Shown: in pieces, positions 4,866 to 19,362 of the stretch
How positions within the stretch are numbered: the first letter of the stretch is position 1
Layout of the letters: each line of letters starts with the position of its first letter
Made by a program: the position numbers and the translations under genes
Notes under the pieces: model-generated
What the model was told of the DNA's origin: nothing
The model's database searches: none
The model's input: only the letters and a program-made list of their open reading frames with translations
Origin: Escherichia coli
GTDB lineage: Bacteria; Pseudomonadota; Gammaproteobacteria; Enterobacterales; Enterobacteriaceae
Length of the DNA: 64,000 nt
Assembly: GCF_041248615.1 (NCBI RefSeq)
Contig: NZ_CP158426.1
Reading direction: 5' to 3' (one strand)

Positions 4866-5188
4866 ACTTTCAGGCCCCTCTCATGTAACCAGTGGGCTGC
4901 ACGCAGCCTGCCGTTTTCCTCACCGGCAAGCAGTGCGCGGATAATCCCGACCGCCTCGCTGTCGTCGTCCTTCACCGCGGTATGAAGCGTTATCCCCCGG
5001 GCCACGCCACGCTTTATCGTGATGACGCCTTTTTTCTCCAGTGCACGAAGATGCTCTACCGCTGCATTCACTGAACGGTATCCCAGCATGGTTGCCACCT
5101 CCTGATTGGTTGGCGGAAAGCCACGCTCTTTCTGGTAAGAAATCAGCATATCCAGCACCTGCTGCTGGCATTGAGTTAACGTCGTCAT
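4862..5188 (-). CDS. LexA-like N-terminal DNA-binding domain protein lacking the S24 peptidase domain (108 aa)
   Basis: LTQCQQQVLDMLISYQKERGFPPTNQEVATMLGYRSVNAAVEHLRALEKKGVITIKRGVARGITL parallels the LexA N-terminus. No Ala-Gly/Ser/Lys autocleavage module. TAATG coupling to the upstream gene. Confidence 0.7.
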   Translation of the reverse strand: MTTLTQCQQQVLDMLISYQKERGFPPTNQEVATMLGYRSVNAAVEHLRALEKKGVITIKRGVARGITLHTAVKDDDSEAVGIIRALLAGEENGRLRAAHWLHERGLKV

Positions 5189-5676
5189 TACGCCCCCACG
5201 TAATTCCCTGACAGATACCACTCATCACTCGATACAGCGCGCTTGCTGCTTTTCCGTAAACACTGCTCACGACGCGCCAGAAAATTGTTTCGTTCTGGCT
5301 GGGAGTGGCTTTCACGGAATGCCGCCATCCACACCGTTGCAGCACGACGGTATAAGCCCCTTGACTCCAGTTCTTCAGCCTGGCGGGTCAGGCACAAAAT
5401 CACCCGGGGATCGTTAGTGCCGACATAGAAATTGCGCACAGGTCTGGTTTCACGAACTGGTTGTGGTTCCGGCTCCTGCGCTCTCTCAGTCAGGCGCGGG
5501 AAATGTCTGCGTGTATCTCCTTCACAACGGTGAGCCACACGCCCACTCTGACGTAACTTGCTTGCTGACTGCAGAACGCGCTGCCGTGAGTAACCTGCAA
5601 AAGCATCCGCAATGTCTCCGGAAGTACACCCCGGATGGGCTTCAATGAATTTCTGAACTTCATTCAAAAGACTCAT
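5188..5676 (-). CDS. PerC-family transcriptional regulator-like protein (162 aa)
   Basis: QAEELESRGLYRRAATVWMAAF matches the PerC/Pch core motif (AE.LE..G.[WY]RRAA..W). Confidence 0.6.
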   Translation of the reverse strand: MSLLNEVQKFIEAHPGCTSGDIADAFAGYSRQRVLQSASKLRQSGRVAHRCEGDTRRHFPRLTERAQEPEPQPVRETRPVRNFYVGTNDPRVILCLTRQAEELESRGLYRRAATVWMAAFRESHSQPERNNFLARREQCLRKSSKRAVSSDEWYLSGNYVGA

Positions 5677-5678
5677 AA

Positions 5679-6620
5679 TCACCCCCTGAATCCTGCCGGG
5701 ATCTGGCTGTAGTCCACGTTGTCGTAACTGGCTTTGAAGTACGGGTCTTCACGTTTTTCTGTGTGCGTGCTGACGGACGGCGATAAGCGCAGGGAAAGCT
5801 CATCCCATTTTTCCCGCAACTTCGACGGGCTGAGCACGTTACGGCACCAGAACGGATCGCGGCTGACGCGGCTGTACATCTCGCAGATTTGTTTGTGAGT
5901 ACGACCATCCTGCACACACATCAGGCGAATTTCGTTTGCCCAGGCTGTCCAGTTAGGTTCTTTGGGACGAACCACCTCGCCGTCACATTCGGCGGCCTGC
6001 TCGTACAGGGCGATGATTTTTTTCCAGAGCCACTGTGCGCAGGTCAAATCATCCTGCGTTCCCCACTGGCGCTTTTTAGGGCTGAATACAACCGCATCAG
6101 GATGGCGAGTTAAAAAATCCTGTTCATCCATCTGCGTGTCCGGTTGCGAAGCGTCCGGACGAGAAGGTTTTTTATCTGATGGATCATGTTTTGATTTTAC
6201 TGACGGATCCCCGCCAGATTCTGACGGGTGAAAACCCGCTTTTTTGCCAGATTTCGACGCATCAAATTTTGACGGGTCAGATTTTGATGCGTCAGATTTT
6301 GACGGGTCAGAATCTGACAGTTGAGAAAATGCCGCTGCCTGAAGCTTCGCAACGTTAAGCTGATAAACATTCGACGCATTGCGGTTACCCTGGCGACGCG
6401 CCTTACGCGTTAACCAGCCTTCTGCTTCCAGCCGTGCGATAGCCGTTCTGACGGTACTCATCCCCGCGCCAATCTGACGGGCAATGGTTTCAATTGATGG
6501 CCAGCACACACCTTCGTCATTACTGAAATCAGCCAGGCGGGCCATAATTGCCACGCTGGATAACTTCATGCCTGATGCAGCGCAACCATCCCATACATAG
6601 CCGGTTAATTTAGTGCTCAT
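5679..6620 (-). CDS. Phage replication initiator (O-like; N-terminal winged-HTH, internal iteron-encoded repeats, DnaT-like C-terminal tail)
   Basis: wHTH WPSIETIARQIGAGMSTVRTAIARLEAEGWL. Pentapeptide repeats SDPSK/SDASK are encoded by 15-bp iterons. The C-terminus DYSQIPAGFRG resembles the DnaT C-terminus. Confidence 0.75.
   Translation of the reverse strand: MSTKLTGYVWDGCAASGMKLSSVAIMARLADFSNDEGVCWPSIETIARQIGAGMSTVRTAIARLEAEGWLTRKARRQGNRNASNVYQLNVAKLQAAAFSQLSDSDPSKSDASKSDPSKFDASKSGKKAGFHPSESGGDPSVKSKHDPSDKKPSRPDASQPDTQMDEQDFLTRHPDAVVFSPKKRQWGTQDDLTCAQWLWKKIIALYEQAAECDGEVVRPKEPNWTAWANEIRLMCVQDGRTHKQICEMYSRVSRDPFWCRNVLSPSKLREKWDELSLRLSPSVSTHTEKREDPYFKASYDNVDYSQIPAGFRG
6190..6322. repeat. Iteron array (putative ori) inside the replication gene
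   Basis: Five contiguous 15-bp units at 6248-6322 (cagatttcgacgcat, caaattttgacgggt, cagattttgatgcgt, cagattttgacgggt, cagaatctgacagtt), plus cagattctgacgggt at 6215-6229. Confidence 0.7.
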
Positions 6621-6789: not shown

Positions 6790-6968
6790 AGGACTGTCTC
6801 CTTCTGCCGGTTGAAATCACCCACAGCCCACTCTGCAAAGCTGTGGGTTACAATTTCCCTGTCACCTGGTACATTCACTGCATAGCAATATTCCACCTTC
6901 GCTTTTCCACCCGGTACAGGAAGCGCAATCAGTTGCGAGCGACGGTAGTGTGTTGTTAAACTGTTCAT
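6630..6968 (-). CDS. Track ORF of 112 aa; only the 5' ~60 codons look protein-like
   Basis: [52 protein letters not shown] looks coding. The Ser-rich tail looks like an out-of-frame read (see 6610-6789). Confidence 0.4.
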
Positions 6969-7522
6969 GCGTTAGTTTCTCCACAACCAGAAGCAATCGA
7001 CGCCACGACGCCCGGAGCTGCACACTCACGGGCGTCATTACTTTCTGAAATGCAAAAAATTTTGTAGACAAGTGCTGCATGCTCCTGCAGCTTCGAAATT
7101 GAGAGATACAGCTCGTCGTTAATTGCTGTCTTCTCATGCGGTTCCACTACGCCGTCTTCGATTGCTGAACGAATCTGTTTTGAATAACTGCCGATCTGTT
7201 CAATGACTTCCAGCAGACGCTGGTTAATATCGGCGTTGTCCACATCCTCGACGTCAGGAAGAGACACAAAGACGCCATTTGCAGACTGCGCCACAGCATC
7301 AGCAATGAAGTGAGTGCCACCAGCACGCTGTAAAACCATTGCCCATCCCAGCGGGAAAATCTGATCGCCATCTGCACGAAGGCGGTTGAATAAAGCGTTC
7401 TCTGTTACATCCAGCCAGTCAGCGGCTTCAGCGTAACCCCCCGGCAACGCCGCGATAGTTTTTCTGACAGCTTTCACGTACCACTCAGGCTGTTTTTCTA
7501 TTTTCCAGTGATGCTTACCCAC
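6965..7522 (-). CDS. CII-like / YdaT-CP76-type phage regulatory protein (185 aa from GTG-7522; alternative ATG-7555)
   Basis: Lies directly downstream of the cro-like gene. TAAGGAG SD 6 nt before GTG-7522. The family call is from memory only. Confidence 0.5.
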
Positions 7523-7544: not shown

Positions 7545-7793
7545 TTACTTTTCATCTGATGAATCTTTAATCTTTTGAAAAATATCTGGACGTAATTTTT
7601 CTTTTGATATGCCAGTGGTCTTTTCAATGAATATCGAGAGCTTTGCAGGGGGACGCTTTTCTCTGTTCAACCAGTTCCAGACATGTTGTTGCTTTACTAA
7701 ATGACCGCTGCTGGCTGTGAGCTTCCGAGCCAATTCTGATTGACCACCAGCCAGAGCGATTGCCTCCGATAAGGCTAATTGCTCAGGTGTCAT
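7545..7793 (-). CDS. Cro/YdaS-type HTH regulator (82 aa)
   Basis: HTH GGQSELARKLTASSGHLVKQQHVWNWL. Divergent from the cI-like repressor. Confidence 0.75.
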   Translation of the reverse strand: MTPEQLALSEAIALAGGQSELARKLTASSGHLVKQQHVWNWLNREKRPPAKLSIFIEKTTGISKEKLRPDIFQKIKDSSDEK

Positions 7794-7928
7794 AGCTTTC
7801 TCCTTTTTTGGTAGTTAAGTTGTTACGAGCTGCAAGAATACAACATTAACAACTTTTACCACAACTTTTAGGTGTTGGAAAGCTAAAACATAAAGTTGTA
7901 ACCTCATCAAAAAAGAGAGGGATATGTT
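7794..7928. promoter_or_regulatory. OR-type immunity control region (divergent cro and cI promoters, operators)
   Basis: Multiple copies of ACAACTT/AAGTTGT (7817, 7849, 7861, 7892). The motif ccacaact...aggtgtt is shared with the region at 9541-9600. Confidence 0.65.
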
Positions 7929-8615
7929 GTGAAAACACTGGCAGAACGATTAAAGATAGGTAGAGAGAAAGCTGGCATGAGCCAAGCTCAACTAGCTGAA
8001 AAAATTGGACTTTCACAACAATCTGTAGCCAAAATAGAGAATGGCGAAACTCTACAACCGCGCAAAATTAAAGAAATTGCAAAAGTTTTAGGTGTATCAC
8101 AAAAGTGGTTACAACTTGGTATTGAAGACAACGCATCCATACCTGATCTTGTTGTAAAAGAAGCAGAAAGCACCGCATTAGACCCCGATATTTTCGTAAA
8201 CATTCCTGTTTTAGATGTCGAGTTATCGGCAGGTAACGGATGTCTGGCTGAAATAGTTGAATCAGCTATTGACTGGTTTCCGTTAAGAAGAGCAGATTTG
8301 AGAAAATCTGGCGTATGTGCATCTAATGCCAAGATCGTACAAATATGGGGGAACAGTTTATTACCGGTTCTCAATAATGGAGATCTTGTTGCCGTTGATA
8401 TTTCTCAAACCGTTCCTATTCGTGATGGCGATCTTTATGCCGTACGAGATGGTGTATTGCTAAGGGTTAAAATACTTATCAACTTACCTGACGGTGGCTT
8501 GATTCTTAGAAGCTTCAACAAAGATGAGTACCCAGATGAAATACTCACCTTTGAAGATAGACGAGCCAGAATTCATGTTATAGGTAGGGTATTCTGGTCA
8601 TCGCGAACTTGGTAA
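7929..8615 (+). CDS. CI-type prophage repressor (XRE HTH + S24 LexA-like peptidase, 228 aa, GTG start)
   Basis: HTH MSQAQLAEKIGLSQQSVAKIENG. Ala-Gly cleavage site (LSAGNG). GNSLLP Ser and a downstream Lys (LRVKIL). Confidence 0.9.
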   Translation: MKTLAERLKIGREKAGMSQAQLAEKIGLSQQSVAKIENGETLQPRKIKEIAKVLGVSQKWLQLGIEDNASIPDLVVKEAESTALDPDIFVNIPVLDVELSAGNGCLAEIVESAIDWFPLRRADLRKSGVCASNAKIVQIWGNSLLPVLNNGDLVAVDISQTVPIRDGDLYAVRDGVLLRVKILINLPDGGLILRSFNKDEYPDEILTFEDRRARIHVIGRVFWSSRTW

Positions 8616-9488
8616 TGCATCGAAAAGCATTTCTTCAGAAATAATTTTAAGTTTTGCACCATTATCATCCCTATAAGATATAGCCTTTTCGATCTTCCTT
8701 CCGTGACTAGAGAATTTCCAATCACGGGAGGAAAGCGTCCCAATTACTAAAAAATCCAACTTTTGAGTAATTCCACTACTGATGTTCCCACCAGCATTTT
8801 TAATCAAATTTTCAACTACGGCTCTCTTTCCTGCAACAAAAGTGCCTGTAAGACAATAGGTTTTACCCTCTAACTCTATCGAAGCCCCTACATCAATAGG
8901 CAGCCTGGTCGCCAAACCATCCACCACCCCACTTTCCAAGTCACATCCTGTGAAGTCTACTAATGCCTTATGTAGAGTTAAACTCTCATCTTCAGTAATA
9001 ACACCATCTTTAAGAATTTCCTTTACAAGTGCATAAAGTTTTTTTCCTGGGTAGTTGTTCTTCAAAGCTCCATTTTGCTCAAGCCACCAATTAAGATATC
9101 TTATTTCTTCTTGAGTTAAGTTCCGATCAGCAATTAATCCTTTACATAGTCCATTAAGTAAATGGACATCTACATCCTTGGAGTAAAAATCAATTTCAGG
9201 GATATCAAGAATTTCCCTCTGTATTTGGAGAAGACTATTTTTAAGGTCATCACGTTCTTCTGATGTGATTATTCCATCCGCAAGAATATCCGACACCCGT
9301 GCAGATAGACTTTTTATAACTCCATTATTGATAATCTGCTTTGCTTCAAGTAACCATGTATCTAAGTAAAGAACCTCCTCTTCACGGACAACTCCATCTG
9401 CAATGATTCCATCAATGATGCTAATCAAGTTAGCAAATAACTTGTCCCGGTTCTGTGTGTAATTAAAAGCGTAAAGCGCGTCTTCCAT
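8598..9488 (-). CDS. BRCT-domain protein with four TerB-like DG-[VI]-I/V-x-x-E-E repeats (296 aa from ATG-9488)
   Basis: C-terminal GKTYCLTGTFVAGKRAVVENLIKNAGGNISSGITQKLDFLVIG...W is the BRCT pattern. Strong AAAGGAGG SD. AT-rich by eye. Convergent with cI, with an 18-nt overlap. Confidence 0.75.
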   Translation of the reverse strand: MEDALYAFNYTQNRDKLFANLISIIDGIIADGVVREEEVLYLDTWLLEAKQIINNGVIKSLSARVSDILADGIITSEERDDLKNSLLQIQREILDIPEIDFYSKDVDVHLLNGLCKGLIADRNLTQEEIRYLNWWLEQNGALKNNYPGKKLYALVKEILKDGVITEDESLTLHKALVDFTGCDLESGVVDGLATRLPIDVGASIELEGKTYCLTGTFVAGKRAVVENLIKNAGGNISSGITQKLDFLVIGTLSSRDWKFSSHGRKIEKAISYRDDNGAKLKIISEEMLFDALPSSR

Positions 9489-9540
9489 ACAACCTCCTTT
9501 TTTTGATAATCCTTGCACTCCTTGGCTACTCGTTCAAACC

Positions 9541-9600
9541 ACATAAAGTTGTTGACAACATTCAAAACCACAACTAAATTACAACTTAAAGGTGTTAAGA
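9541..9600 (+). promoter_or_regulatory. pL-type early-left promoter with OL operators
   Basis: TTGACA (9552-9557), 17 nt, TAAATT (9575-9580). Overlapped by AAGTTGTtgACAAC and ACAACTaaattACAACTT operator-like motifs. Confidence 0.65.
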
Positions 9601-9712
9601 CAACGAACAGGCAGGACGCCCACGAAGTAGCCGCTTGGGGCATATGAAGTCCAGGATGATTCGTTGAGTCATGTTGTGCCACTAGGCACTCATGTTAAAG
9701 CAGGTGTATGAA

Positions 9713-11044: not shown

Positions 11045-11320
11045 GTGGCTTCTGTTTCTATCAGCTGTCCCTCCTGTTCAGCTACTGACGGGGTGGTGCG
11101 TAACGGCAAAAGCACCGCCGGACATCAGCGCTATCTCTGCTCTCACTGCCGTAAAACATGGCAACTGCAGTTCACTTACACCGCTTCTCAACCCGGTACG
11201 CACCAGAAAATCATTGATATGGCCATGAATGGCGTTGGATGCCGGGCAACCGCCCGCATTATGGGCGTTGGCCTCAACACGATTTTCCGCCATTTAAAAA
11301 ACTCAGGCCGCAGTCGGTAA
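11045..11320 (+). CDS. insA: IS1 InsA
   Basis: [43 protein letters not shown]... Confidence 0.95.
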
Positions 11321-11742
11321 CCTCGCGCATACAGCCGGGCAGTGACGTCATCGTCTGCGCGGAAATGGACGAACAGTGGGGATACGTCGGGGCTAAATCG
11401 CGCCAGCGCTGGCTGTTTTACGCGTATGACAGGCTCCGGAAGACGGTTGTTGCGCACGTATTCGGTGAACGCACTATGGCGACGCTGGGGCGTCTTATGA
11501 GCCTGCTGTCACCCTTTGACGTGGTGATATGGATGACGGATGGCTGGCCGCTGTATGAATCCCGCCTGAAGGGAAAGCTGCACGTAATCAGCAAGCGATA
11601 TACGCAGCGAATTGAGCGGCATAACCTGAATCTGAGGCAGCACCTGGCACGGCTGGGACGGAAGTCGCTGTCGTTCTCAAAATCGGTGGAGCTGCATGAC
11701 AAAGTCATCGGGCATTATCTGAACATAAAACACTATCAATAA
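11239..11742 (+). CDS. insB: IS1 InsB' frame (expressed as InsAB' by a -1 frameshift)
   Basis: A6C slippery run at 11296-11302. The rest of the frame reads as the canonical InsB sequence. Confidence 0.95.
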
Positions 11743-14436: not shown

Positions 14437-15727
14437 TTGCCTGATTTTGATATGTTCAATCCAGCATCAAATGAAGGTTAATTTATGGACGAAAAACAGT
14501 TACAGGCTCTGGCTAACGAACTGGCCAAAAACCTCAAAACCCCTGAAGACCTCAGTCAGTTTGATCGGCTGCTGAAAAAGCTCAGCGTTGAAGCCGCTCT
14601 CAATGCAGAGATGACACACCATCTTGGGTATGAGAAAAATCAGTCCAGACCAGGAGCTAACTCCCGCAACGGTTATTCCACAAAGACCGTTATCACAGGC
14701 GACGGTCCACTGGAACTGCGTACTCCGCGCGATCGTGACGGTACCTTCGAACCACAACTGGTAAAGAAAAATCAGACCCGTATTACCGGGATGGATAACC
14801 AGATCCTCTCGTTGTATGCCAAAGGGATGACCACCCGTGAGATAGCCGCTGCGTTCAAAGAACTGTATGACGCAGATGTTTCACCGGCACTGATATCAAA
14901 GGTTACCGATGCCGTGATGGAGCAGGTTGTAGAATGGCAAAACCGACCACTGGATGCTGTTTACCCCATTGTTTATCTTGACTGTATCGTCCTGAAAGTT
15001 CGGCAGGACAGTCGCATCATCAACAAATCGGTGTTCCTGGCACTGGGCATCAATATCGAAGGTCAGAAAGAACTGCTGGGTATGTGGCTGGCCGAAAATG
15101 AAGGGGCGAAGTTCTGGCTCAATGTGCTGACTGAACTGAAAAACCGCGGTCTGAACGATATCCTCATCGCCTGTGTGGATGGCCTGAAAGGCTTCCCGGA
15201 TGCCATCAACACAGTATATCCGAAGGCCCGCATCCAGTTATGCATCGTGCATATGGTGCGCAACAGCCTGCGCTTCGTGTCATGGAAGGACTACAAAGCC
15301 GTCACTCGCGACCTGAAAGCGATTTATCAGGCTCCCACGGAAGAGGCAGGTCAGCAGGCACTGGAAGCGTTCGCTGCGGCCTGGGACAGTCGCTATCCTC
15401 AGATAAGCCGAAGCTGGCAGGCTAACTGGCCGAATCTTGCCACGTTCTTCGCTTATCCAACGGACATCCGCAAAGTGATCTATACGACGAATGCCATCGA
15501 GTCGCTAAACAGCGTGATCCGCCATGCGATCAAAAAGCGTAAAGTGTTCCCGACAGACGACTCGGTGAAAAAAGTGGTGTGGCTGGCAATCCAGTCTGCG
15601 TCCCAGAAATGGACGATGCCGTTGAAGGACTGGCGAATGGCAATGAGCCGCTTTATTATCGAGTTCGGTGACCGCCTGGACGGTCACTTCTGAGAAAAGG
15701 CATTTACACAGAATCCTAAACAGGCTC
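14413..15727 (+). mobile_element. IS256-family (mutator-type) insertion sequence, 1315 bp
   Basis: Imperfect ~29-bp terminal inverted repeats (gagcctgtacatagatttgtgtaattgcc / ggcatttacacagaatcctaaacaggctc). An 8-bp target duplication GGGCATCA sits at 14405-14412 and 15728-15735. Confidence 0.9.
14485..15693 (+). CDS. IS256-family transposase (402 aa)
   Basis: Mutator-family layout: ...YLDCIVLKVR..., ...IACVDGLKGFPDAI..., ...TTNAIESLN... Confidence 0.92.
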   Translation: MDEKQLQALANELAKNLKTPEDLSQFDRLLKKLSVEAALNAEMTHHLGYEKNQSRPGANSRNGYSTKTVITGDGPLELRTPRDRDGTFEPQLVKKNQTRITGMDNQILSLYAKGMTTREIAAAFKELYDADVSPALISKVTDAVMEQVVEWQNRPLDAVYPIVYLDCIVLKVRQDSRIINKSVFLALGINIEGQKELLGMWLAENEGAKFWLNVLTELKNRGLNDILIACVDGLKGFPDAINTVYPKARIQLCIVHMVRNSLRFVSWKDYKAVTRDLKAIYQAPTEEAGQQALEAFAAAWDSRYPQISRSWQANWPNLATFFAYPTDIRKVIYTTNAIESLNSVIRHAIKKRKVFPTDDSVKKVVWLAIQSASQKWTMPLKDWRMAMSRFIIEFGDRLDGHF

Positions 15728-15878: not shown

Positions 15879-18011
15879 TCAATCTTTAAGACTAATTGTG
15901 ATTGCATCTGGAAATCCAATTTGGCTATAGCACATAGTTTCGGTTATGAATAATTTTCTATCGATAAAATCAAGTACATCTTTTTTCGTGAGCCCCGTTA
16001 ACATCGTCAATTTGTTAATTACATAATCATACCAATCATGGTGAAGCATGTTTATATACATGTTAATATCAACTGCATCTTTCTTCCATGAATTATTCGG
16101 TATCAAATCTTCAGATAAAAATCCTCTTATTAAATCGCTTGCATAGGACATCCTAAGAAAAACAGAAAGAAAAAGCCTTACATTAACATGTGTAAAATTT
16201 GTAGATAGCGTCGAAGGAAACTCGTAAAACCGGTAGATCAACCGACTTACAAAAACAGCAGAGTCTATCGCATTTACAGGCAGTAATGTTCCGATGACAC
16301 TTAATGCACCACTTATAACGAAGCCATTAGCAACAGAGGCATGAGAACCACTTAGGGCAGATGTTAAACATGCACTCAGAATTACGATAGGAGGAATTCT
16401 TGCTATTTTTCTCAAACTCCAAGTGTCCACTTTATCCTCACCTATTATTAACCATCCATGACTCCCATTGCCATCATGGTTTCCATGACAATCCATAACA
16501 AGAATATGACCTTGATATTGATTTAGAGCATCAATAAACTCAGCTTTCGATCTAACATCAATAATCTCGCAATCAAGATCTGGCATCTGTTTTTTAAATA
16601 TCTCAATTGCGTTCTCTAATATGAACTTTAAGTGATCATCAGGCTCAAAAGAACGTATAACTAAAACCTTTCTCAACTCAGATGCTTTTACTAAAACGCG
16701 CGGAAAAGCAGAGGCGCTCTGTAGAAGAACGTTACCAGGCGTAGCATTTATTCTTGATATCTCATGACTGAACATTATAGGTATGTTATTAAACCTAATC
16801 CAATCCAATGGTACATCACAAACAAAGGACAAATCGCTATAGTTTTTACTTATATATGTTCTCAACTTGCAACCAAGGGCTCTTCGAATAACAGTATTGA
16901 ATGCTTTAGATTTAGTGATGAATGCTTCACTATTTATCCCAGAAGAAGTTGCAAGATCTTCAAGATTTTTCAAATAATTGGAGTAATGATTTATTGCATT
17001 TGGCAATCTTATTGCTGGGATTTTTTTATTTATGCTAAATAAAGTAATCGCAGCTGTTGTTAATCGCATTTCAGCGCGTCTTAGTGAGGTGAGGTAACGG
17101 AAAGCAGGACTTTTAAAAAGTTCTTTTCTATCTGAATTTATATCAAGTCTAATTCCAGAATAGCCTGGATTCCTCAACACTCCATCAATAAGGAATTTTT
17201 TCTCAATTGTGGATAAATTTTCCGTTATTAACTCATAAAAGTCATTATTTTTATCATATAAAAAAGAGTGCATACCCGGAGCAAAAAGTAAGACTTCCGT
17301 TGGAAGTGGTATATCTAATTCCTTTAAACATTCGGTGTATGCATCAACGCTATGAAGTATTATTTCTATAAACTCTCTTTTGCTACTACCATCTTTAATT
17401 CTTTTTGGTGGAGATAGCATATAGCCAAGTGATTCAATTAACAACTCATTGGGTAGTGTTGAATTGTTAAGCGTCGATCTCCAAGGTGATTTATTAAATA
17501 AAGCCCCTCTTCGCTTCAACTTCGTTGATATTTTCTTTTCACTGTGATTTTTTCTTATTTTATCCTCAATGAATTTCAACCGAGAGAAGAGCACCTTATC
17601 AAATGAGTATATACTATTAATCTTATTAAGTGGTAGATCAGCGCGTTTAGAATTGCAACAAATTATAGGTGGTATAGCAAAATGTTTTTTTAAAGCACAA
17701 ACATACGAAAAATCTTCTTTAGCACAAAAAATTAAGCAAAATGGCGTTTGATAAATATTTGGTATTTTTTCAAGATTTTCTTTAGATATTAAAAAAATAG
17801 GATTTAGCCCGCTTAGAGTAGGCTGAAAGTTATCATTTTCACTGACAAAAATCTCACTAATTTCTTTTGGTGTTTTGGCCAATAAAAAAAGAATGTTGGA
17901 TATCTCTGGGTTGAGGAGGCCAGTATCGAAACCTTGGATTATGGTTTGTTCCCCAGTAGTAGGCATGATTACAACTTTAAGTATCGCCCCGTGTTCCTGT
18001 AACAGTTCCAT
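15879..18011 (-). CDS. CHAT/caspase-like domain protein with a ~470-aa unassigned N-terminal region (710 aa from ATG-18011; track ORF extends to 18068 via TTG)
   Basis: His-Cys dyad context ILVMDCHGNHDG (His codon 16485-16487) and PPIVILSACLTSA (Cys codon 16368-16370), ~38 aa apart. Very AT-rich. TATAAT on the minus strand at 18095-18100. Confidence 0.7.
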   Translation of the reverse strand: MELLQEHGAILKVVIMPTTGEQTIIQGFDTGLLNPEISNILFLLAKTPKEISEIFVSENDNFQPTLSGLNPIFLISKENLEKIPNIYQTPFCLIFCAKEDFSYVCALKKHFAIPPIICCNSKRADLPLNKINSIYSFDKVLFSRLKFIEDKIRKNHSEKKISTKLKRRGALFNKSPWRSTLNNSTLPNELLIESLGYMLSPPKRIKDGSSKREFIEIILHSVDAYTECLKELDIPLPTEVLLFAPGMHSFLYDKNNDFYELITENLSTIEKKFLIDGVLRNPGYSGIRLDINSDRKELFKSPAFRYLTSLRRAEMRLTTAAITLFSINKKIPAIRLPNAINHYSNYLKNLEDLATSSGINSEAFITKSKAFNTVIRRALGCKLRTYISKNYSDLSFVCDVPLDWIRFNNIPIMFSHEISRINATPGNVLLQSASAFPRVLVKASELRKVLVIRSFEPDDHLKFILENAIEIFKKQMPDLDCEIIDVRSKAEFIDALNQYQGHILVMDCHGNHDGNGSHGWLIIGEDKVDTWSLRKIARIPPIVILSACLTSALSGSHASVANGFVISGALSVIGTLLPVNAIDSAVFVSRLIYRFYEFPSTLSTNFTHVNVRLFLSVFLRMSYASDLIRGFLSEDLIPNNSWKKDAVDINMYINMLHHDWYDYVINKLTMLTGLTKKDVLDFIDRKLFITETMCYSQIGFPDAITISLKD

Positions 18012-18144
18012 CAAAAATCCTAATAAACAAATAAGAATGTTATAATCAAAAACTGCAAGGATTAGCAAGCAATTCTTACAGTTTTAAGAAGGGGATTATA
18101 CCGCAATATGCATAATTGCGTTCTGCCTATGCAAAATGTCAGTT

Positions 18145-19362
18145 CTAGTCTGAACAAGTACAAGTAACTATCGATTCAACTCTCTCCCACCATGCCTGGT
18201 AAGCTTTACGCTGTTCATCTAAATAATCGCTCTTGTCATAAACCTGCCATACCCCTGGCAGTTTATGACCGAGCATTATTTCTGCAATATGAGGTGCAGT
18301 AAGATCAGAAAAGTTTGTTCGTGCTGTTCGTCTCAAATCATGAAGAGACCAATGAGGGAATTGATACCCCAAACGCCGCCATGCGTACTGCATTAAATTG
18401 TAAGGCAGCGACTGCAATGATGTCCGGCCAACGGGTTCCCTGCTTCCTTCCTTAGTAAAAAGCATATCGGAACCATTGTTCATAGAGATAACGTACTTTA
18501 TAAGCTCTTCAACCGGTTCAATAATGGGGCGCTTTAGCGGTTCGCCTGTTATATCCCCTGTCTTATGTCGTTCTGGCGGTACAGTCCATACCTTATTAAT
18601 GAAATCAAAATCATTCACCCTAGCGGTAATTAGCTCTGAACTACGGCAGCCAAAATGCAGCAATAGTTTAATGAAGGCCCGGTATTTAGGAACCATTCGA
18701 GAACCATCGATCGCAGCATAAAGGATTTTAATTTCATCATGTGTCAGAAACCGTTTCTTCTGACCTTTACGGATATCCATATCTTTACCCGTGATATCCG
18801 ACAGCGGGCGAGTTTCAATGAGCTTTCTCTTATACGCCCAGACATGGGCCTGCTTTGCGTTAATTAGCAATCGGTCTGCTATTGCTGGAGTCTTAGTGCT
18901 AAGAGGCTCCAGGACTTCTAACCAATCATGCAATGTAGCTGCATCGTGAGGGATATTCCCGATTTTAGAGAACAGGTGCAGCTCAAACGAGCGGAGTATC
19001 TGTTCAGAACCTTTTTTATTTTTTACACAATATGCTTCATACCAGGCACGGATCACAGACTCTACCGTCATGGCTTCAGTAGCTTTTCGTTTTTCAGCCT
19101 GCTTGACTAATCGTGGATTGCGGTTTGACTCGAGTTCACCACGGAGACGGATAACTTCTTCTCTGGCCTCTTTTAATCCAGTTGCCGGGTAAGTTCCGAT
19201 ATCAAGGCGCTCACCTTTCCCTGCCCATTGATAACGATATTGGAACACTACGCGACCTTTCGGTGATACTCTGACAGACAGACCATCACGATCGGATTTA
19301 ACCAAAACCTTATCACGTTCCTTTCCAACGACTGAACGCAACCACGCATCAGACAGCGCCAT
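18145..19362 (-). CDS. Tyrosine integrase, P4-like (405 aa)
   Basis: N-terminal DUF4102-type arm-binding region (LSVRVSPKGRVVFQYRY). Catalytic WSLHDLRRTARTNF and LGHK...VYDKSDY. Confidence 0.92.
   Translation of the reverse strand: MALSDAWLRSVVGKERDKVLVKSDRDGLSVRVSPKGRVVFQYRYQWAGKGERLDIGTYPATGLKEAREEVIRLRGELESNRNPRLVKQAEKRKATEAMTVESVIRAWYEAYCVKNKKGSEQILRSFELHLFSKIGNIPHDAATLHDWLEVLEPLSTKTPAIADRLLINAKQAHVWAYKRKLIETRPLSDITGKDMDIRKGQKKRFLTHDEIKILYAAIDGSRMVPKYRAFIKLLLHFGCRSSELITARVNDFDFINKVWTVPPERHKTGDITGEPLKRPIIEPVEELIKYVISMNNGSDMLFTKEGSREPVGRTSLQSLPYNLMQYAWRRLGYQFPHWSLHDLRRTARTNFSDLTAPHIAEIMLGHKLPGVWQVYDKSDYLDEQRKAYQAWWERVESIVTCTCSD

Follow-up and report, generated by a model that had tools for sequence, protein, structure and literature searches.

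The gap between the repressor gene and the leftward promoter pL in the immunity region is the kind of location taken by cI-proximal exclusion genes such as those for lambda RexA/RexB, P22 SieB and BTP1 BstA. In a prophage of Escherichia coli, we found in this gap a gene for a 296-amino-acid (aa) protein that combines a repeated helical module with a C-terminal BRCT domain. It was analyzed within a stretch of 64,000 nucleotides (nt) of contig NZ_CP158426.1 (assembly GCF_041248615.1), the whole of which is referred to here as the window. BRCT domains are central to eukaryotic DNA-damage signaling and bacterial ones are known almost only as appendages of LigA and of a few repair and replication proteins. 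TerB-domain proteins, which the helical module resembles remotely, are present in the validated defense systems Bunzi, Shango and Dionysus. We tentatively propose that the gene is an accessory cargo ("moron") of the immunity module and that its product, expressed in the lysogen, might sense phage DNA ends or nicks and so serve in anti-phage defense or superinfection exclusion. Of the explanations considered this appears to be the best one, although we hold it as possible rather than established.

An earlier note on this DNA, made from the letters alone, had described an AT-rich open reading frame (ORF) of this length with a strong Shine-Dalgarno (SD) sequence, located in the cI-pL gap and convergent with a cI-like repressor gene, with an 18-nt overlap of the 3' ends. 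All of these points held. The ORF call has the same boundaries and start as RefSeq WP_000389078.1 ("BRCT domain-containing protein"), the SD is in place (Table 1) and the overlap corresponds to positions 8598-8615. The GC content of the gene is 0.36-0.40 against ~0.50 in the flanks, and the repressor gene is AT-rich too (0.36-0.41 for the two genes). On the + strand, the promoter scan detected a sigma-70-like promoter (TTGACA at 9552-9557, 17-nt spacer, TAAATT at 9575-9580), which is surrounded by repeats of the half-site ACAACTT/AAGTTGT. Since the same half-site is repeated four times in the cro-cI intergenic region (operator repeats at 7817-7902), the region 9537-9597 is identified as of the left operator (OL)/pL type, and the gene fills the gap between it and the repressor gene. 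The conservation of the sequence across genera, far beyond chance, confirms that the gene is genuine. In PHROGs, the protein falls into phrog_3989 ("unknown function"), with a full-length match (1.5e-128).

The BRCT assignment was borne out by Pfam (PF00533, aa 206-290, 29.0 bits versus a cut-off of 21.3, E = 1.3e-6), and the alpha/beta fold is supported by fold matches as well as by the profile. The closest matches of this part, in both sequence and structure, are the BRCT domains of RFC1 (p140), LigA and phage LigB. RFC1/LigA-class BRCTs bind 5'-phosphorylated DNA ends and nicks, and the Thr-Gly, Arg and Lys positions that we take to form their 5'-phosphate pocket are also kept in the window protein. 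Among 73 diverse homologues, R222 and K265 never vary, and the conservation of T214 and G215 is at least 90%. In the alignment with the RFC1 BRCT, T214-G215 and R222 fall on its "VITG...R", while K265 is presumably the counterpart of the pocket lysine ("GSK" in LigA, "GRK" in the window protein). Such a pocket suggests that the domain recognizes DNA ends or nicks. Unlike RFC1, LigA and LigB, the window protein carries an extra, family-specific conserved insert of roughly 10 residues (S-R-D-W-x-F-S-S-H) before the pocket lysine, and has no ligase or clamp-loader catalytic domains; profile scans of it found neither adenylation, OB or HhH ligase domains nor a DEDDh exonuclease (DNA polymerase III epsilon). 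The names "NAD-dependent DNA ligase" and "DNA polymerase" given by several sources were rejected, as the BRCT tail alone matches (TIGR00575 at positions 584-634 of 652 and PRK06195 at 217-303 of 309, both far under their cut-offs).

The N-terminal 200 residues form nine helices in four helix-loop-helix units in the AlphaFold2 (AF2) model, with the helices of the first half at residues 2-28, 36-52, 56-69 and 76-94. The module arose by duplication: aa 1-100 and aa 101-200 align locally with a score of 108 (z = 16.9, 500 shuffles), and four of the six unit pairs (u1/u2, u1/u3, u1/u4 and u2/u4) outscore all 500 shuffles, whereas u2/u3 and u3/u4 do not. Every unit has one Asp-x6-Glu pair, invariant or at least 90% conserved (residues in Table 1), and these four acidic sites probably bind a metal or another ligand. 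The four repeats that the earlier note had seen are therefore supported by both self-alignment and the modeled units. Its comparison with TerB found only remote support, in the helix-DG-x5-E-helix motifs and in matches of some relatives to the family. When 133 diverse representatives of the module were searched against Pfam, TerB was the sole recurrent family match besides BRCT and exonucleases; 33 matched TerB (PF05099) at E<=10 and 10 at E<=0.01 (best 9.5e-5), and the TerB-related DUF533 was matched by 13 and 2, respectively. Direct homology of the window protein to TerB had to be rejected. The protein has no PF05099 match even at E<=10, a family profile run with hmmsearch against PDB sequences did not retrieve TerB, and no TerB structure is among the top fold matches. 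Alignment by hhalign to a low-diversity Klebsiella TerB profile was weak (P = 0.011, probability 3.8%), as was that to DjlA-N; within this weak TerB alignment, units 2 and 4 are laid on TerB's two ADG-x5-E motifs. The module thus appears to be only remotely related to TerB, with a common motif, and is not a demonstrated member. Repeated helix-(A)DG-x5-E-helix units are found likewise in the TerB proteins of Bunzi, Shango and Dionysus and in tellurite TerB, but the window protein has neither a transmembrane segment nor the partner genes of those systems, and a fusion to BRCT has not been described for them. Incidentally, a single helix-DG-x5-E-helix unit is found near the C terminus of YmfL (window 6965-7522, - strand), and CII-like regulators carry a similar one (weak matches to NF041471, phrog_6499, phrog_101 and Phage_CP76). 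It may represent a regulatory module of wider use in phages.

Of 5426 complete E. coli genomes, 46 carry the gene; the repressor allele is found in 47 E. coli genomes. Amino acid identity is 68-82% in Citrobacter, Serratia, Klebsiella, Enterobacter and Salmonella and drops to 31-37% in Vibrio and Aeromonas. In a collection of 5.8 billion proteins, 354 homologous clusters were found at E<=1e-3 (identity to the window protein is 68-100% among those listed), and Orf2 of Vibrio phage K139, used as the query, retrieved 463. Relatives are also encoded on at least 115 IMG/VR viral contigs and in 40 species-representative genomes, mostly of Gammaproteobacteria. A phmmer search with aa 1-197 recovered 1069 representative proteins (E<=1e-3), most of them of ~300 aa and with the same architecture. 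Others consist of the module followed by ~900 aa of uncharacterized sequence, of module, BRCT and TPR, or of a DEDDh exonuclease (RNase_T) fused to module and BRCT (430-500 aa). These last fusions, for which no loci were found in IMG/VR, retain the catalytic residues of the DEDDh exonuclease along with the BRCT and all four D...E pairs, and match the PADLOC candidate PDC-S48 over most of the model length (1e-27 to 1e-34). The window protein itself matches PDC-S48 (HMM PDLC05027) weakly and in part (positions 239-377 of 411, 2.4e-7). PDC-S48 also has helical repeats and a C-terminal BRCT, with the four D...E pairs kept in both, but it has an N-terminal DEDDh exonuclease, whereas the window protein has none and carries two full helical halves. 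As this was the sole PADLOC match and the family was not described in the literature searched, the impression of the earlier note that the architecture belongs to no named system proved right. The gene is not categorically new, as it is already generically annotated as a BRCT protein and is kin to the PDC-S48 candidate. What sets this variant apart is that it lacks an effector, occupies a classic position of exclusion genes and has an unexpected link to K+ channels.

In all the enteric lambdoid prophages examined (Escherichia, Citrobacter, Serratia, Providencia, Proteus and Rosenbergiella), the gene and a homologous S24 repressor gene converge and overlap slightly. A different arrangement is found in Vibrio phage K139, whose Orf2 is a true homologue (33% identity, 95% coverage, same architecture) with no assigned function. 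There, on a P2-like rather than a lambdoid backbone and in another orientation relative to cI, it belongs to an annotated lysogenic operon with a mapped start, PL->cI->orf2->glo->int. The layout cI->gene->variable gene->int is shared by P2-like prophages of Aeromonas, Aliivibrio and Oceanimonas. The variable gene codes for an uncharacterized 232-aa protein in Aeromonas and for a Kv-like K+ channel in Aliivibrio, and in Oceanimonas its place is taken by an NsnA/PD-T4-2_A-like GmrSD_N protein together with a HEPN protein and a methylase. The cI-int interval of K139-like prophages is a published defense hotspot (Rousset et al. 2022, PMC9122126). The idea that the gene always lies next to an S24 repressor applies to enterics and K139-like prophages and is false for most other taxa, since only 12 of 39 species loci have one.

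Outside recognizable prophages, the neighbors of the homologues are LmuA and LmuB (Lamassu), SIR2 and HerA, the PDC-S20 KAP NTPase, RhuM and integrase/resolvase islets; an NsnA/PD-T4-2_A-like gene is likewise a neighbor in the Oceanimonas interval mentioned above. In a metagenome-assembled genome of Chromatiales (L110, 2535-4974), the homologue has, directly upstream, genes for a family-A DNA polymerase-like protein and for a stand-alone RNase_T exonuclease. The exonuclease gene overlaps the start of the homologue, and the arrangement amounts to the exonuclease fusion split into two genes. In five genomes a gene for a Kv-like K+ channel adjoins the homologue (Table 1). These channels have Ion_trans and Ion_trans_2 domains, the TTVGYGD filter and an arginine-rich S4-like helix. 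They belong to two lineages with a mutual identity of 25-30%, and both gene orders occur. Because such channels are rare genes, their repeated adjacency is unlikely to be due to chance. The pairing recalls the RexA sensor and RexB channel of lambda, but the partner channels are of the Kv type and not RexB-like, and the window gene has no channel partner: a channel HMM search of all ORFs in the window found no membrane or channel partner. The K139 homologue resembles RexAB in being co-transcribed with cI; the window gene differs from them in being convergent with it. PADLOC, PHROGs and NCBIfam scans of the window protein found no RexA, RexB or SieB family.

The host prophage has an early region of the CPS-53/e14 type (ymfL, yfdP/Q/R) and is integrated beside yjjG. 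The flanking ymfL ... yfdP backbone occurs in about 2900 E. coli genomes, yet the full interval is found in only 43. Other repressor alleles are present in sibling prophages, whose repressor-pL slot is empty in one case (L145) and without an annotated gene in another (L146). In E. coli CH4799 (L144, 2274-2708) it holds instead a convergent gene for a 144-aa "ECs1072 family phage-associated protein", which suggests that prophages of this family use the slot as a small hotspot for cargo. In E. coli RMDEC465 (L014, 4714-4851), an internal deletion has left a 45-aa remnant ORF, with the N terminus MDDAL... fused to the BRCT segment RDWKLSNHGRKIEKA, beside a repressor gene that is 83% identical.

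As for expression, an alignment of Escherichia, Citrobacter and Serratia revealed a conserved block upstream of the gene in which the operator TGTCAACAACTTTATGTGGTT abuts a weak promoter-like element, followed by the SD. We propose this element as the candidate promoter of the gene, from the conservation of the block. The geometry of an operator abutting the candidate promoter looks like that of lambda OR2/pRM, so it is conceivable by analogy that the repressor activates transcription of the gene. That the gene is expressed in E. coli lysogens is presumed, with the annotated lysogenic operon of K139 as the evidence. We also observed a GC-rich terminator-like hairpin (GTGGGCGTCCTGCCTGT, - strand, window 9607-9623) just to the right of OL/pL. 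It is kept in Escherichia, Citrobacter, L095 and Serratia microhaemolytica (L097) and has diverged in two Serratia marcescens loci. It may serve to insulate the promoter of the gene against leftward transcription, or it may belong to the pL leader.

If the protein acts in defense, the pocket of its BRCT domain would recognize foreign DNA at ends, nicks or gaps, either on injection or during replication, and the two TerB-like four-helix halves, with their four Asp-x6-Glu sites, would couple recognition to an output. In relatives this output could be provided by the fused DEDDh 3'-5' exonuclease (as in PDC-S48), by a separate adjacent exonuclease or by an adjacent Kv-like K+ channel. The solo form of E. 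coli might sequester DNA ends or nicks, blocking circularization, ligation or replication, or else act via a host partner. The conserved pocket of the 5'-phosphate type and the defense-hotspot contexts fit the suggestion, already made in the earlier note, of a sensor of phage DNA ends, and they lead us to infer a defense phenotype for the window protein. A more elaborate version, which we regard as unlikely, is that the family is the sensor of a new class of immunity, in which the BRCT would detect the ends or nicks of foreign DNA and a membrane effector would be gated by the TerB-like module. Here, the pairs with Kv channels would cause a Rex-like abortive infection via K+ efflux, the solo form would rely on some host partner, for example a channel like Kch, and expression from the OL-abutting promoter would be activated by the repressor as for lambda pRM.

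Several observations weigh against a defense sensor expressed in the lysogen. The consensus sigma-70 scan found no promoter for the BRCT gene, which is antisense to both cI and pL transcription, so that its expression in the lysogen is no more than a presumption. The window protein has neither an effector domain nor an adjacent partner gene. Phospho-peptides or ADP-ribose can also be ligands of such BRCT pockets. The association with defense islands was seen at a handful of loci, PDC-S48 is a computational candidate only, for which no validation was found, and the family is known from sequence alone. Besides, the constant adjacency to an S24 repressor in prophages could indicate a regulatory role instead.

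This last possibility deserves weighing in its own right. As an accessory of lysogeny or induction, the protein would work with the S24 (LexA/cI-type) repressor, e.g., by BRCT damage sensing that tunes its cleavage, induction or the choice between lysis and lysogeny. Such a role would explain why the gene adjoins a helix-turn-helix (HTH) plus S24 repressor gene in two unrelated phage types, lambdoid enteric and P2-like Vibrio/Aeromonas prophages, despite only 31-37% identity, why allele and gene co-occur in E. coli (47 versus 46 genomes), why their 3' ends overlap and why a conserved operator adjoins the candidate promoter. However, many homologues have no repressor nearby (those in islands and those beside Lamassu, SIR2-HerA or K+ channels), fusions to an exonuclease would be senseless as repressor cofactors, the RMDEC465 prophage retains its repressor with the gene deleted, and tblastn found no match in some K139-like phages, e.g., PV94 and PhiO18P. 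We consider this role about as improbable as the channel-gating scheme above. A slightly less probable one is that of an adaptor in the DNA metabolism of the phage's own cycle, in which the non-catalytic BRCT would recruit LigA, the clamp or clamp loader, or repair factors for the sealing of cos ends or for replication. It draws on the similarity of the BRCT to those of RFC1, LigA and phage LigB, on the ligase and polymerase names attached to homologues, on the relatives fused or adjacent to DnaQ-like exonucleases and on the family-A polymerase of the Chromatiales locus. Yet the ligase and polymerase models are matched by the BRCT part only, and the gene lies outside the replication and early-lytic operons: the K139 homologue is in a lysogenic operon, and the window gene is antisense to pL. 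It is, moreover, dispensable and patchy among sibling prophages. No specific support emerged for the related suggestion of the earlier note, a modulator of the host ligase.

Least probable, in our view, is a lysogenic-conversion factor unrelated to phages, with the TerB-like part involved in metal or oxidative-stress sensing or in membrane physiology, roles that have been proposed for Ter proteins, and the BRCT binding a phosphorylated host protein. The remote similarity of the family to TerB and DUF533 points in this direction, as do the K+ channel partners, which suggest a link to ion homeostasis, and the K139 neighbor glo, which is reported to code for a virulence-associated secreted protein. 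The conserved T-G/R/K pocket and the exonuclease fusions point instead to nucleic-acid substrates, and the neighbors are defense genes and not metal-resistance genes, with no genes of a ter operon nearby. We return to the sensing of phage DNA ends or nicks in the lysogen as the preferred, if tentative, explanation. If the family does defend, it would be the first BRCT-based immune sensor, widespread, non-catalytic, with the phosphate pocket kept and located in immunity regions and defense hotspots, and it would offer a handle on the role of TerB-like modules in Bunzi, Shango and Dionysus. That K+ channels of the voltage-gated type are repeatedly its partners hints at a possible physiological role for bacterial Kv-like channels and, in mechanism, at a parallel with RexAB. 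A small, single gene that is easy to clone makes the question directly testable.

Table 1. Features of the immunity region (positions in the window) and Kv-like channel genes that adjoin homologues in other genomes (positions in the locus named)
Feature	Position	Strand	Evidence and remarks
BRCT-protein coding sequence, including stop codon	8598..9488	-	ORF and translation; ATG at 9488; 296 aa
Shine-Dalgarno AAGGAGG	9499-9493	-	4 nt 5' of ATG; kept in seven enteric loci
First helical half, aa 1-100, repeat units 1 and 2 (D31/E38, D71/E78)	9189..9488	-	Self-alignment, AF2
Second helical half, aa 101-200, repeat units 3 and 4 (D121/E128, D161/E168)	8889..9188	-	Self-alignment, AF2, conserved columns
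BRCT domain, aa 205-291 (T214-G215, R222, K265 and family insert SRDWxFSSHGRK)	8616..8876	-	
Candidate weak promoter: -35 TTGAAC (9537-9532), 17-nt spacer ending TGC, -10 AAGGAT (9514-9509)	9509..9537	-	
cI-like repressor, 228 aa, HTH_3 and Peptidase_S24	7929..8615	+	Pfam; convergent with BRCT gene
cro-like gene (YdaS-type HTH), divergent from repressor, marks right operator (OR) side	7545..7793	-	Pfam YdaS_toxin 7.8e-15
OL-type operator region and pL-type promoter	9537..9597	+	Promoter scan, common half-site
Kv-like channels, 236-254 aa	L113 5877-6587; L117 1006-1719; L118 4218-4934; L126 5852-6607; L138 5894-6658 (Aliivibrio; homologue at 5001-5891)		

Other parts of the prophage deserve a brief mention. 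At the yjjG-side end, a protein of ~710-729 aa annotated with a CHAT domain adjoins the integrase (15879-18068 and 18145-19362, both on the - strand), and its gene is likely another cargo or defense gene. A copy of IS1 (11045-11742) interrupts the pL operon between yfdP and yfdQ, and beyond it there is a transposase gene of IS1414 (IS256-like, 14485-15693). The prophage is probably defective.

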